Assembly: GCF_017348835.2 (NCBI RefSeq)
Contig: NZ_CP072315.1
Length of the DNA: 64,000 bases
Source of the DNA: Escherichia coli
GTDB taxonomy: Bacteria; Pseudomonadota; Gammaproteobacteria; Enterobacterales; Enterobacteriaceae
Direction: 5' to 3' (one strand)
Shown: positions 4,225-37,502 of the stretch, in pieces
Position numbering within the stretch: position 1 is the stretch's first letter
How the letters are laid out: every line of letters begins with the position of its first letter
Position numbers and translations under genes: made by a program
Notes under the pieces: model-generated
Told to the model about the DNA's origin: nothing
What the model saw: the letters and a program-made list of their open reading frames with translations, nothing else
The model's database searches: none

Positions 4225-5044
4225 GGCACTGTTGCAAATAGTCGGTGGTGATAAACTTATCATCCCCTTTTGCTGATGGAGCTGCACATGAACCCATTCA
4301 AAGGCCGGCATTTTCAGCGTGACATCATTCTGTGGGCCGTACGCTGGTACTGCAAATACGGCATCAGTTACCGTGAGCTGCAGGAGATGCTGGCTGAACG
4401 CGGAGTGAATGTCGATCACTCCACGATTTACCGCTGGGTTCAGCGTTATGCGCCTGAAATGGAAAAACGGCTGCGCTGGTACTGGCGTAACCCTTCCGAT
4501 CTTTGCCCGTGGCACATGGATGAAACCTACGTGAAGGTCAATGGCCGCTGGGCGTATCTGTACCGGGCCGTCGACAGCCGGGGCCGCACTGTCGATTTTT
4601 ATCTCTCCTCCCGTCGTAACAGCAAAGCTGCATACCGGTTTCTGGGTAAAATCCTCAACAACGTGAAGAAGTGGCAGATCCCACGATTCATCAACACGGA
4701 TAAAGCGCCCGCCTATGGTCGCGCGCTTGCTCTGCTCAAACGCGAAGGCCGGTGCCCGTCTGACGTTGAACACCGACAGATTAAGTACCGGAACAACGTG
4801 ATTGAATGCGATCATGGCAAACTGAAACGGATAATCAACGCCACGCTGGGATTTAAATCCATGAAGACGGCTTACGCCACCATCAAAGGTATTGAGGTGA
4901 TGCGTGCACTACGCAAAGGCCAGGCCTCAGCATTTTATTATGGTGATCCCCTGGGCGAAATGCGCCTGGTAAGCAGAGTTTTTGAAATGTAAGGCCTTTG
5001 AATAAGACAAAAGGCTGCCTCATCGCTAACTTTGCAACAGTGCC
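4225..5044 (+). mobile_element. tnp26: IS26 copy 1 (IS6 family), Tnp26 G184N variant
   Basis: 820 bp bounded by GGCACTGTTGCAAA and TTTGCAACAGTGCC; tnp26 about 4288-4992; protein reads KRIINATLGF (Asn at 184). Confidence 0.95.
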
Positions 5045-5637
5045 TTTGCACACATATGGAATCTGTAAATCATTTTGGACAAACCCGAAAAGAAATCCGT
5101 GAGTATGTAGATCTTAATAAGATTACTGACCAGGTTAGTATCCCTGAAGATGGTGAAGTCGTTAATCTTTAATTATACATCCCCACAACTTTAATCAGGC
5201 AGTTACTCATTATGGTTTTACTGGTGACTGCCGGCCCTCTTAGCATTCGAAATTTTTTATGTCACCCGATTTAGTTCCGCGCACTTTTTGAGATTTCCGG
5301 GGTTTCAGCCATCAGCCGGAAATTACAGAGGGCAATGGCTGAAGAAGGTTTTTCCCCGCGATAGCGCAAGTTTCCACAAAAGGGCATCGAATTTTTTGAA
5401 TGCCCTTTTCTTACCCCATCCCCTCATAACTTTATGTTTTTATTAACTTCGCGTTTTCGACGCCAGCGTTGGCCAGCTGCTGCCGGCGACGTGGCCACAC
5501 AACCGATTATTCAAGTTCGCTGAATGAGTTTTTACGGGCTGTATGCAACACAAATGCTACGATAATGCCCCCGGACAATACCGGCTCCCAATAATCCGGG
5601 GTGGGTTTGTTCTGCCGGTTTAGTCCGGGGAGCAAGG

Positions 5638-5925
5638 TCACTTTGAGGGGAGATCTTCAGCAAGTAATTTTCCATGCGCGATAAGCCACCTGCGGCGTTT
5701 TGCCATCCACTGCTGAAATTCAGAGGTGCTCTCAACCTTCAGCACATCCTTCCGCTTCCAGGCCATTATGGGGCCAGCTTTTTGTGGTTGGTCGAGAAAG
5801 TCAGATATGGCTTTATCAGTCCAGTACCGCGCTTTCAATCCACTTTTACTTATCCAGTTATCGTGCCATTCAGCGCTTGCTTTAGCGCGTGAATCGGCGG
5901 CGTTGTAATAAAGCCTTACCGTCAT
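5638..5925 (-). CDS. hypothetical protein
   Basis: 95-aa ORF downstream of, and co-oriented with, the helicase remnant; no recognisable motif. Confidence 0.3.
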   Translation of the reverse strand: MTVRLYYNAADSRAKASAEWHDNWISKSGLKARYWTDKAISDFLDQPQKAGPIMAWKRKDVLKVESTSEFQQWMAKRRRWLIAHGKLLAEDLPSK

Positions 5926-5934
5926 TACTCGCTC

Positions 5935-6395
5935 CTATAATCTCAAGGCTCTGTCATCGTTATTTTTTTCATGGCCTTTATCTTTAGGCCGGGCATTACC
6001 TTTATCCTGCGTCGGCTCGGCTTTGTCTCGGCCTTTTTCGCGGGTATCATGCTGCTGCTCTTTGGCATAGCGTTTGAGTTGTTCCAGCTCAAGCGCGGCG
6101 GTTTTGAACCCTTCCCGGCTGGCCGCTTTATCCAGCTTCTTCTCATCGTCGGTGTAAATGACGGCTTCGTGTTTAGCGCGGGTGACAGCCACGTAATAAA
6201 CATCTTTGGCCGTTGTGAGTGATCGGGTATCCATATTGATAAAAACCTTGTCGCAGGTCAGCCCCTGAGCACTATGAACGGTCGAAGCGTAAGCCAGCCC
6301 TAAGTACATAGGTTTGTTGGCATCAATTTTTACCAGCCGCCCTTTCTCGTTCTCCAGCAGTACCTCACCACTCTGGACGCTTTTTACCTTAAAAC
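5935..6395 (-). pseudogene. 3' fragment of a RecD/TraI-superfamily helicase gene, interrupted by the Tn1721-type inverted repeat
   Basis: Open frame ...FKVKSVQSGEVLLENEKGRLVKIDANKPMYLGLAYASTVHSAQGLTCDKVFINMD... carries the helicase C-terminal motif (YA-TVH-SQG) and starts abruptly at the IR boundary. Confidence 0.5.
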
Positions 6396-6433
6396 GGGGG
6401 AACCGCAGAATTCGGAAAAAATCGTACGCTAAG
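6396..6433 (+). repeat. 38-bp terminal inverted repeat of a Tn1721/Tn21-subgroup Tn3-family transposon
   Basis: GGGGGAACCGCAGAATTCGGAAAAAATCGTACGCTAAG matches the GGGG...ACGCTAAG end pattern; Tn1721 itself carries a chemoreceptor-like gene next to its IR. Confidence 0.7.
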
Positions 6434-34880: not shown

Positions 34881-34882
34881 AC

Positions 34883-35215
34883 GTGCGCCCGCACCGACAC
34901 CCTCACACCTTCGAGCTACTGTTGCCATTAAGGGGTCGTTTCGTGGTGCTGAATTTTGACGATCGGGGTACCGTCACCCATCGGGCGATATTGGGGGAAA
35001 CCTGTACGGTGCTGGAGATGGCCGCAGGAACCTGGCATGCCGTGCTGTCGCTGGATACCGGTGGCATAATTTTTGAAGTAAAACACGGTGGCTATCAACC
35101 CGTGGCTGCCGATGACTATGCGCACTGGGCTCCAGCGGAAGGAGAACCAGGAACCACGGAGCTTATGGCCTGGTATGCGCAAGCGCAGGTGGGCGACAGC
35201 ACTTTTGCCGTCTAA
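34883..35215 (+). CDS. truncated orf477/WbuC-like cupin protein usually found downstream of blaCTX-M group 1 genes
   Basis: 110-aa ORF convergent with blaCTX-M, in the position where the orf477 remnant normally lies. Confidence 0.65.
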   Translation: MRPHRHPHTFELLLPLRGRFVVLNFDDRGTVTHRAILGETCTVLEMAAGTWHAVLSLDTGGIIFEVKHGGYQPVAADDYAHWAPAEGEPGTTELMAWYAQAQVGDSTFAV

Positions 35216-35261
35216 GGCGATAAACAAAAACGGAATGAGTTTCCCCATTCCGTTTCCGCTA

Positions 35262-36137
35262 TTACAAACCGTCGGTGACGATTTTAGCCGCCGACGCTAA
35301 TACATCGCGACGGCTTTCTGCCTTAGGTTGAGGCTGGGTGAAGTAAGTGACCAGAATCAGCGGCGCACGATCTTTTGGCCAGATCACCGCGATATCGTTG
35401 GTGGTGCCATAGCCACCGCTGCCGGTTTTATCCCCCACAACCCAGGAAGCAGGCAGTCCAGCCTGAATGCTCGCTGCACCGGTGGTATTGCCTTTCATCC
35501 ATGTCACCAGCTGCGCCCGTTGGCTGTCGCCCAATGCTTTACCCAGCGTCAGATTCCGCAGAGTTTGCGCCATTGCCCGAGGTGAAGTGGTATCACGCGG
35601 ATCGCCCGGAATGGCGGTGTTTAACGTCGGCTCGGTACGGTCGAGACGGAACGTTTCGTCTCCCAGCTGTCGGGCGAACGCGGTGACGCTAGCCGGGCCG
35701 CCAACGTGAGCAATCAGCTTATTCATCGCCACGTTATCGCTGTACTGTAGCGCGGCCGCGCTAAGCTCAGCCAGTGACATCGTCCCATTGACGTGCTTTT
35801 CCGCAATCGGATTATAGTTAACAAGGTCAGATTTTTTGATCTCAACTCGCTGATTTAACAGATTCGGTTCGCTTTCACTTTTCTTCAGCACCGCGGCCAC
35901 GGCCATCACTTTACTGGTGCTGCACATCGCAAAGCGCTCATCAGCACGATAAAGTATTTGCGAATTATCTGCTGTGTTAATCAATGCCACACCCAGTCTG
36001 CCTCCCGACTGCCGCTCTAATTCGGCAAGTTTTTGCTGTACGTCCGCCGTTTGCGCATACAGCGGCACACTTCCTAACAACAGCGTGACGGTTGCCGTCG
36101 CCATCAGCGTGAACTGGCGCAGTGATTTTTTAACCAT
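35262..36137 (-). CDS. blaCTX-M: class A extended-spectrum beta-lactamase, CTX-M-1 group (CTX-M-55-like: Val77 and Gly240)
   Basis: From ATG at 36137: [46 protein letters not shown]..., 291 aa; reads [11 protein letters not shown] and [10 protein letters not shown]. Allele call from memory. Confidence 0.9.
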
Positions 36138-36682
36138 GGGATTCCTTATTCTGGAAGATACGAAATAACAACAACATGAATAGTCCCTAAATTCCACGTG
36201 TGTTTTTTATTAGCTTCAAAAATCACTATTTCACGAAGAATTTAGACTGCTTCTCACACATTGTAACATTATTTACAACCACCTTTCAATCATTTTTGAT
36301 AAATCATTGATTTCATCTTTGCTGCAATGATACTTAATAAACTCTGCAAGTTATCCACAGAGCAACACTCAATTTTATTGATGATATTCTTATTATACCA
36401 GACATTTTTCATACACTCCCTTGTACGGATAGTTTTCCGACAACTTCATGATTACATATCTTGCGGTTTTGATTATTTTTGCTGCAAGAAATACATACTT
36501 CAAACGAAAGGTCTTTATTTGCTGTCTGTATTCTGAAGAGTCCAAGGAATCAAACTTGAACAACAAAAATAGGTTATATGAAAGCATCATCATTTGAAAC
36601 ACGGCTTCATTCGCCCAAAATGACTTTAGCAAGAGATGACCCACCGCCATGTCGTATTTGGCTTCTTTGATATAGTTTTCAG
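36138..36682 (-). mobile_element. ISEcp1 3' remnant (right inverted repeat, promoter region, end of transposase gene), truncated by IS26
   Basis: Reverse complement directly upstream of the bla start reads ...ACACACGTGGAATTTAGGGACTATTCATGTTGTTGTTATTTCGTATCTTCCAGAATAAGGAATCCC; the supplied ORF 36393-36695 is the C-terminal end of an IS1380-family transposase. Confidence 0.8.
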
Positions 36683-37502
36683 GGCACTGTTGCAAAGTTA
36701 GCGATGAGGCAGCCTTTTGTCTTATTCAAAGGCCTTACATTTCAAAAACTCTGCTTACCAGGCGCATTTCGCCCAGGGGATCACCATAATAAAATGCTGA
36801 GGCCTGGCCTTTGCGTAGTGCACGCATCACCTCAATACCTTTGATGGTGGCGTAAGCCGTCTTCATGGATTTAAATCCCAGCGTGGCGTTGATTATCCGT
36901 TTCAGTTTGCCATGATCGCATTCAATCACGTTGTTCCGGTACTTAATCTGTCGGTGTTCAACGTCAGACGGGCACCGGCCTTCGCGTTTGAGCAGAGCAA
37001 GCGCGCGACCATAGGCGGGCGCTTTATCCGTGTTGATGAATCGTGGGATCTGCCACTTCTTCACGTTGTTGAGGATTTTACCCAGAAACCGGTATGCAGC
37101 TTTGCTGTTACGACGGGAGGAGAGATAAAAATCGACAGTGCGGCCCCGGCTGTCGACGGCCCGGTACAGATACGCCCAGCGGCCATTGACCTTCACGTAG
37201 GTTTCATCCATGTGCCACGGGCAAAGATCGGAAGGGTTACGCCAGTACCAGCGCAGCCGTTTTTCCATTTCAGGCGCATAACGCTGAACCCAGCGGTAAA
37301 TCGTGGAGTGATCGACATTCACTCCGCGTTCAGCCAGCATCTCCTGCAGCTCACGGTAACTGATGCCGTATTTGCAGTACCAGCGTACGGCCCACAGAAT
37401 GATGTCACGCTGAAAATGCCGGCCTTTGAATGGGTTCATGTGCAGCTCCATCAGCAAAAGGGGATGATAAGTTTATCACCACCGACTATTTGCAACAGTG
37501 CC
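36683..37502 (-). mobile_element. tnp26: IS26 copy 6, Tnp26 G184N variant; right-hand boundary of the resistance mosaic
   Basis: 820 bp with both inverted repeats; tnp26 about 36735-37439 on the minus strand; reads KRIINATLGF. Confidence 0.95.

Follow-up and report, generated by a model that had tools for sequence, protein, structure and literature searches.

The 64,000-nucleotide stretch of Escherichia coli DNA analysed here (contig NZ_CP072315.1; hereafter the window) contains six complete copies of the insertion sequence IS26, numbered 1 to 6 from left to right, and the question raised by this locus is by which events these copies came to stand where they are. The lack of a target-site duplication around a copy bears on this question only because copy-in transposition of IS26 makes an 8-bp duplication. 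An earlier reading of the DNA (the sequence-only reading) stated that none of the six copies is flanked by such a duplication, and took this to mean that they had arrived by cointegrate formation, by insertion of a translocatable unit (TU) beside an existing IS26 or by recombination between copies, and not by simple transposition. We verified the lack of duplications, but related plasmids gave a different picture for one of the copies. With a probability of about 0.85-0.9, copy 3 arose by intramolecular copy-in transposition in trans, an event that would have created an 8-bp duplication after all.

The 14-bp terminal repeat of IS26, GGCACTGTTGCAAA, was found at 15 sites in the window, where 0.03 were expected. 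Twelve of the sites bound six elements of 820 bp with perfect terminal inverted repeats, one is a lone end at 22971-22984, and two sites with one mismatch bound IS6100. The six copies and their spacings were also recovered by a repeat finder, and all six hold an intact open reading frame (ORF) for the 234-aa transposase Tnp26 (NF033587 IS6 family transposase, 276-278 bits, cut-off 125). When the left and right 8-bp flanks of each copy were compared in the window, no copy had a matching pair (0 of 6, Table 1), and the flanks quoted earlier as examples, at copies 6 and 2, were exact. Two such flanks match by chance in 1 of 65,536 cases per copy, and differing flanks are the default for unrelated sequence. 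He et al. found none of about 70 IS26 copies with a duplication of its own, which the zero of six seen here fits; a missing duplication is the usual state in resistance regions and does not exclude membership of IS26 (PMC4471558). The same authors used the flanks of single ends as tracers and included inversions with inverted duplications. For the copies without their own duplication, it is very probable that the two flanks of each were joined by different events. A duplication around the resistance region as a whole was also considered and rejected, as its outermost flanks, GTCGTTTC and ACGCAAAG, differ.

The window was 99.99% identical over all 64 kb to p2016062-242, an IncHI2A plasmid of Salmonella enterica from Henan, China (NZ_CP090540.1), where it corresponds to record positions of about 117526-181525. 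Five positions differ in the 64 kb (4683, 28386, 28905, 33057 and 37044). This plasmid carries ten IS26, all inside one resistance region of 52 kb, and no IS26 that might hold a partner flank was found elsewhere in the complete plasmid. The window thus shows the right-hand six of the ten copies. From copy 1 to copy 6 it covers 33 kb, the right-hand part of an IncHI2 multiresistance region of roughly 52 kb that was built by IS26.

All left-end flanks of the ten copies were then compared with all right-end flanks, each in its own orientation (100 pairs). Exactly one left/right pair matched in 8 of 8 positions in p2016062-242, with about 0.0015 matches expected. The left-end member, CTTCAGCC (22985-22992), lies at the outer left end of an 878-bp composite, which consists of copy 3 and an adjoining 58-bp IS26 left end. 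It is the reverse complement of GGCTGAAG, which follows the right end of a second such composite upstream of the window (p2016062-242 record 115157-115164). The two composites are inversely oriented and each has the same 8 bp on one side, in inverted form, as expected of an event in trans. The target rebuilt through a single GGCTGAAG was contiguous over 308 of 308 nucleotides in at least 1577 plasmids, and represents the spacer that separates IS6100 from orf5 of the integron 3'-conserved segment.

The plasmid p2017028-250 (NZ_CP090546.1), from the same study as p2016062-242 and here called the sister plasmid, carries the composite only once, flanked by blaTEM-1 to the left and by truncated repA-repC-sul2-strAB to the right, and its orf5-IS6100 spacer is uninterrupted. 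Window positions 1-5044 and 5045-22984 match the sister plasmid on the opposite strand, while 22984-50110 are collinear with it. The class 1 integron at the window start is thus inverted relative to the sister plasmid, window 1-5044 being 100% identical to sister positions 141048-136005 on the opposite strand. An inverted 8-bp partner, a target that is intact in the sister plasmid and inverted DNA in between together require copy-in transposition of the composite to a new site. Among the PLSDB records, the composite inversion into the orf5-IS6100 spacer was seen only in p2016062-242, besides the window itself.

The order of events would be as follows. The ancestor would have resembled p2017028-250, its composite standing next to blaTEM-1, a remnant of Tn2, on one side and truncated repA-repC-sul2-strAB on the other. 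The composite would have attacked GGCTGAAG downstream of orf5 on the same molecule, in the opposite orientation, by means of its right end and its outer left end; that the outer left end was used follows from the 58-bp fragment being present in both composites. Such an event in trans would yield a second, inverted copy of both the element and the 8 bp, and would invert the ~25 kb in between. The donor would keep its left flank and gain the target on its right, and the upstream composite beside blaTEM-1 would then have its right end followed by GGCTGAAGGCCGAG. The new, inverted copy would keep the old right flank of the donor (repA) and have the other target copy at its left end. The IS26-RSF1010 repA junction GGTAAATCCATG, as expected of a Tn6029-type structure (Tn2 blaTEM fragment - IS26 - truncated repA-repC-sul2-strAB - IS26), is present at copy 3. 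A blaTEM side next to the repA-joined IS26 was found only in the sister plasmid and in pSTEC1024_1; in the window lineage the blaTEM and repA sides stand apart because the inversion would have separated them. The same inversion would have made copies 3 and 4 direct repeats, so that the mph(A) unit formed in situ. The idea of this unit as an inserted TU is therefore contradicted by the comparison with the sister plasmid.

Could all six copies have come by intermolecular cointegrates, TU insertion or homologous recombination only, none of them through a new target within the plasmid? No copy has a duplication of its own, copies 3-6 form a direct array of the kind that the targeted conservative route yields (PMC4894685), and copies 2, 4, 5 and 6 stand at inherited junctions, all of which agrees with this explanation. 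It is nevertheless improbable, as it is contradicted at copy 3 by the inverted 8-bp partner, the intact target in the sister plasmid and the inverted intervening DNA. Of the earlier account, the cointegrate-type chemistry, the recombination between copies and the potential TUs stood, but intramolecular copy-in had been left out, and the step from a missing duplication to the absence of simple transposition failed at copy 3, where the 8-bp duplication sits on two IS copies, inverted. The contrast with simple transposition in any case adds little, because IS26, as far as known, makes only cointegrates (PMC10433875).

A further route has two steps: the composite inserts at orf5-IS6100 with a direct duplication (cointegrate and resolution), and RecA then inverts the DNA between it and the composite on the blaTEM side. 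The end product is identical to that of the single event in trans, and homologous recombination between IS26 copies has clearly been active in this lineage, as seen from the exchange of variants described below. Two rare events are needed, however, together with an un-inverted intermediate with two composites, which was absent among the 28 composite-bearing records; we consider this route quite unlikely. That the two routes converge on one product is a point against the single-event reading of copy 3, and three others weigh in the same direction. The window contains neither the donor copy nor the other half of the duplication, and their presence in the replicon of the window is deduced from p2016062-242 with its five differences in 64 kb. 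Copies 2, 4, 5 and 6 are without a reconstructed event, TU insertion and homologous recombination being inseparable from sequence. Finally, an IS26 is found at the same nucleotide (before CTTCAGCC, 244 bp from IS6100) in the opposite orientation in pEcNDM1, NC_023910.1 and pE80014967-1, and this junction in three unrelated plasmids means that the site was used, or inherited, more than once. In the left half of the resistance region (oqxAB, bleO and Tn2, upstream of the window), neither of the two sister plasmids is simply ancestral to the other.

Misassembly is a well-known risk with IS26 arrays, and 820-bp repeats that were collapsed or mis-joined could in principle have produced the mismatched flanks. 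Three of the five differences from p2016062-242 would be compatible with polishing across repeats: positions 4683, 33057 and 37044 are all nucleotide 459 of an IS26, in copies 1, 5 and 6, respectively, where p2016062-242 has the canonical base and the change is silent. These mismatches suggest either such polishing or partial gene conversion. Every junction of the window, however, recurs in independently assembled complete plasmids (p2016062-242, p2017028-250, pSal016, pKUSR18 and hundreds more), which makes an assembly artefact highly improbable. Among the other differences, the one at 28386 is a 1-nt indel within the truncated DUF3883 gene.

The transposing unit in the preferred reading of copy 3, a single event in trans, is the composite. 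It covers 22107-22984; its right end is the normal one, its left end the outer one. In p2016062-242 an identical composite lies beside blaTEM-1, about 2.4 kb before the point where the window starts, and the two form an 880-bp inverted repeat of 100% identity including the 58-bp fragment, both with canonical IS26. The fragment abutting copy 3, to which the lone terminal repeat at 22971-22984 belongs, had been missed by the sequence-only reading; copy 3 is there, but as part of the composite and not as a plain IS26. With a 52-nt query across the junction, whose halves are shorter than the word size, the composite was counted in 28 of 72,556 plasmids (PLSDB), and twice only in p2016062-242. An exact-pattern scan of the species-representative genome set gave no match to the junction, and no description of the 58-bp duplication or of the 878-bp composite was found in a literature search. 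At least three contexts were seen for the outer left flank of the composite, namely the 3'-conserved segment in this DNA, the Tn2/blaTEM region and, in IncHI1 plasmids (pEQ2, for example), padR; for its right flank there were at least five. The composite was canonical in six other plasmids.

The composite presumably arose by self-insertion of IS26 at nucleotide 58, followed by recombination of the direct repeats, which would leave a 58-bp fragment and a complete IS26. It can be compared with IS15, an IS26-like element inserted into itself (named in PMC4471558). Here, unlike in IS15, the outer copy is reduced to 58 bp and the total is 878 bp. IS15 measures 1648 bp. The composite may tentatively be regarded as an autonomous, still active IS26 derivative that transposes by its outer left end, although we consider this possible and not likely. 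Were it true, and did the duplicated end alter the choice of ends, the expression of tnp26 or outward transcription, the composite would be a distinct functional variant that is now annotated as "IS26 plus a fragment".

The six copies are of two sequence variants, which had also gone unnoticed earlier. Copies 1, 5 and 6 are mutually identical and differ from copies 2, 3 and 4 at nucleotide 459 (silent) and at nucleotides 613-614, where codon 184 changes from GGC to AAC, Gly to Asn (G184N, IS26-v1). The name IS26-v1 and a higher activity of this variant were reported in PMC9019673. At copy 4, and at the composite beside blaTEM, the same flanks enclose different variants: IS26-v1 in the sister plasmid and canonical IS26 in the window lineage. 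As variants are swapped under identical flanks, the interiors of IS26 must have been exchanged independently of the flanks, which is direct support for recombination between copies; the differences at orthologous sites indicate gene conversion or replacement of IS26 interiors. Two of the IS26 outside the window are defective. One (p2016062-242 record 111204-111891) lacks about 121 bp of its interior, so that nucleotides 1-128 adjoin 250-820 with an 11-bp overlap, and another (record 102850-103668) has a 1-nt deletion. Defective copies of IS26 persist as recombination substrates.

The comparison with related plasmids, which had been proposed earlier as a check, separated inherited from new junctions with the help of p2017028-250, pSal016 and pKUSR18. 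Copies 2, 4, 5 and 6 have the same two junctions in p2017028-250 as in the window. At copy 1, the junction on the integron side, at the left inverted repeat, is common to the sister plasmid, whereas the junction at the right inverted repeat is specific to the window lineage. There the copy runs into the middle of an MBL-fold gene. The 2.5 kb that come next in the sister plasmid are found neither in the window nor anywhere in p2016062-242, and were probably lost through an adjacent deletion or rearrangement mediated by IS26; such events leave no duplication. The two junctions that differ from the sister plasmid are best explained by intramolecular copy-in, in trans (inversion) at one and in cis (adjacent deletion) at the other. 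The left flank of copy 1 matches the left flank of copy 3 as its reverse complement in 7 of 8 positions. This pair was rejected as chance: about 0.04 near-matches of this kind are expected among 100 compatible pairs, the copy 1 flank belongs to the beginning of a resolvase gene, that of copy 3 to the Walker-A codons of RepA, and the reconstructed junction of the two had no contiguous match in PLSDB.

Another near-match concerns copies 2 and 4, which might be linked by an inversion with GCGCGACG at copy 2 and a degraded 7-bp reverse complement at copy 4 as its footprint. The same two flanks as in the related pOYZ4/MRCP are present here (9007-9014 and 28161-28170), and in that plasmid they have been read as a duplication minus one base (PMC9019673). 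Native DUF3883 proteins, one of them 100% identical over the query, continue ...HVHLKPTDYRASFRSLVG, however, and the GCCGACG beside copy 4 is therefore ordinary gene sequence. The flank of copy 2 would encode RDEQQ... and not a continuation of DUF3883, and the rebuilt junction was without a contiguous match in the 72,556 plasmids and in a genome set of 100,044 species. We regard the resemblance as chance, and an inversion linking these two copies as extremely doubtful.

For copy 4, the junction on the mph(A) side is common to pSal016, where the other side differs; in the window the other junction truncates DUF3883 10 codons before its stop. The junction of copy 6 with the backbone (ACGCAAAG, 37503-37510) is common to p2016062-242, p2017028-250 and pSal016, and beyond this IS26 pSal016 has a dfrA14/arr-2/cmlA integron fragment instead of blaCTX-M-55. 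In pKUSR18 the copy 6 site is uninterrupted, and 601 bp of adjacent backbone are present there that are missing in the p2016062-242 lineage (pKUSR18 excerpt 16962-17562). Window positions 6396-8092 are contiguous with the umuDC-side backbone in pKUSR18. The segment with the chemotaxis gene between copies 1 and 2 is, as judged from this alignment, IncHI2 backbone that the resistance region has engulfed. Its orientation is reversed in the window lineage, with about 29 kb of resistance region between it and the umuDC side.

In copies 1 and 2 tnp26 lies on the + strand and in copies 3-6 on the - strand, so that the pairs 3-4, 4-5 and 5-6 are direct repeats. This bears out the earlier claim that these pairs surround mph(A), aac(3)-II and blaCTX-M; NCBIfam models identified Mph(A) (685 bits, cut-off 550), AAC(3)-II (541, cut-off 480) and CTX-M (627, cut-off 570) between copies 3 and 6. 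Copies 1 and 2 are direct repeats as well, a pair that had not been mentioned. The start-to-start spacings (3-4, 5234 bp; 4-5, 5355 bp; 5-6, 3987 bp; 1-2, 3962 bp) correspond to potential TUs. The 5,234-bp unit would consist of the composite fragment, the 244-bp tail of the 3'-conserved segment, IS6100 and mphR-mrx-mph(A); that of 5,355 bp would carry aac(3)-IId with copy 4 or 5, that of 3,987 bp blaCTX-M-55 with copy 5 or 6, and that of 3,962 bp no resistance gene. As segments between direct IS26 copies in this sequence, the pairs 1-2, 3-4, 4-5 and 5-6 can each be designated pseudo-compound transposons.

The aac(3)-IId module is covered to at least 80% in 451 plasmids and the blaCTX-M-55 module in 1448, from several genera, and the junction region of DUF3883 and IS26 recurs in more than 2000 plasmids. 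Such a wide spread marks them as inherited building blocks. The two modules were presumably added or exchanged beside an existing IS26, either by targeted conservative cointegration through Tnp26 or by RecA, neither of which duplicates the target. Shared junctions beside neighbours that are not the same in pSal016 and pKUSR18 would fit insertion of TUs by the conservative reaction; homologous recombination would lead to an identical arrangement.

Table 1. Features of the resistance region and its surroundings in the window. The gene map, including the integron and resolvase rows, was drawn from the annotation of p2016062-242; flanks are the 8 bp to the left and right of each IS26 copy on the + strand.
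Feature	Position	Strand	Content	Flanks (left/right)
Class 1 integron	1..4224		aadA16 (cut by window start), dfrA27, arr-3, aac(6')-Ib-cr5 on -; intI1 2793-3806 on +	
Resolvase gene start, truncated by IS26 copy 1	end of 1..4224, after intI1			
IS26 copy 1	4225..5044	+	G184N variant (IS26-v1)	CGTAAATC/TTTGCACA
IncHI2 backbone fragment	5045..8186	-	truncated MBL-fold gene, two small ORFs, PAS-domain methyl-accepting chemotaxis gene 6585-8162	
IS26 copy 2	8187..9006	+	canonical	GGCTGTTT/GCGCGACG
Segment between copies 2 and 3	9007..22106		resolvase gene, ISCR2 (ISVsa3), floR, tet(A)-tetR, strB-strA, sul2, RSF1010 repC, truncated repA	
IS26 copy 3	22107..22926	-	canonical; full-length part of 878-bp composite	GATTTACC/GCTCCATC
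Extra IS26 nucleotides 1-58	22927..22984	-	left inverted repeat end, same orientation as copy 3	
Tail of integron 3'-conserved segment, then IS6100	22985..24108	+	244-bp tail, downstream of orf5	
IS6100	23229-24108		880 bp; terminal repeats GGCTCTGTTGCAAA	
Macrolide resistance operon	24547..27271	-	mphR(A)-mrx(A)-mph(A)	
IS26 copy 4	27341..28160	-	canonical in window	TTCAATCC/CGTCGGCT
aac(3)-IId module	28161..32695	-	truncated DUF3883 gene, small ORFs, AAA-ATPase 30236-30778, aac(3)-IId 30791-31651, truncated ISVsa5-like IS4-family element	
IS26 copy 5	32696..33515	-	G184N variant	AAAAGTCC/GAGATTTT
blaCTX-M-55 module	33516..36682	-	Tn2 tnpA fragment 33516-34870, region downstream of gene, blaCTX-M-55 35262-36137, truncated ISEcp1	
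IS26 copy 6	36683..37502	-	G184N variant; right-hand boundary of resistance region	GTTTTCAG/ACGCAAAG

Beyond copy 6 the IncHI2 backbone follows, with umuDC and tra genes. The large segment between copies 2 and 3 lies between inversely oriented IS26. Within it, a perfect direct repeat of 307 bp (10637-10943 and 14921-15227) brackets ISCR2-floR-lysR and overlaps the sequence directly 5' of the ISVsa3/ISCR2 transposase gene; through this repeat floR could be lost or amplified by homologous recombination. Two annotated or possible ORFs cross the ends of IS26: a hypothetical one of 141 nt begins inside copy 2 (8960-9100), and that of the truncated DUF3883 gene stops inside copy 4 (28134-28160). They are fusion artefacts of IS26 insertion and not real genes.

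The proposed origin of copy 3 agrees with the IS26 transposition in trans described by He et al. (2015, mBio, PMC4471558) in the inverse copies, the inverted 8-bp target copies, the inverted intervening DNA and the target that is intact in a relative. It differs in that the mover here would be an 878-bp derivative that used its outer end, and in that one of the two copies lies outside the window. TUs and pseudo-compound transposons were described by Harmer and Hall (PMC4894685, PMC4676283), together with a conservative route that builds arrays with shared central IS26. With these arrays the window has in common the direct IS26 with shared central copies, the absence of duplications between modules and the potential TU formed by each module and one IS26; unlike in them, the mph(A) unit would have been made in place by inversion. 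Excision of TUs by Tnp26 depends on the context, Tn4352 being stable in a recA-negative host, and circular forms from the present region would therefore mostly come from RecA recombination. Circles have been found by inverse PCR in plasmids whose resistance region reportedly shows 100% coverage and 99.97% identity to p2016062-242 (PMC10673294).

IncHI2 plasmids from Chinese Salmonella and E. coli (pOYZ4/MRCP, PMC9019673; pXJ55-plas1 and relatives, PMC10673294) share the backbone, mph(A), blaCTX-M-55, IS26 together with IS26-v1 and the reported missing duplications, and differ from the window in the composite inversion into the orf5-IS6100 spacer. Missing duplications at IS26, arrays of TUs and IS26 inversions are thus already known, have been reported in the same plasmid family and are known nearly in this instance. 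The discovery value is accordingly small, resistance regions without duplications being textbook for IS26; the 878-bp composite acting as a transposing unit is mildly new. A mechanism could be reconstructed for a single copy and inferred for a second, while for the remaining four it is generic.

The region serves as a worked example in which the single-end flanks of all copies, including those outside the window and in sister plasmids, recover actual events, and in which near-matches of 7 of 8 bp need testing against the native sequence before they are read as footprints. It also indicates that a potential TU can arise in place by inversion. For surveillance, it is relevant that mph(A), aac(3)-IId and blaCTX-M-55 are linked here in units with a potential for excision or amplification.

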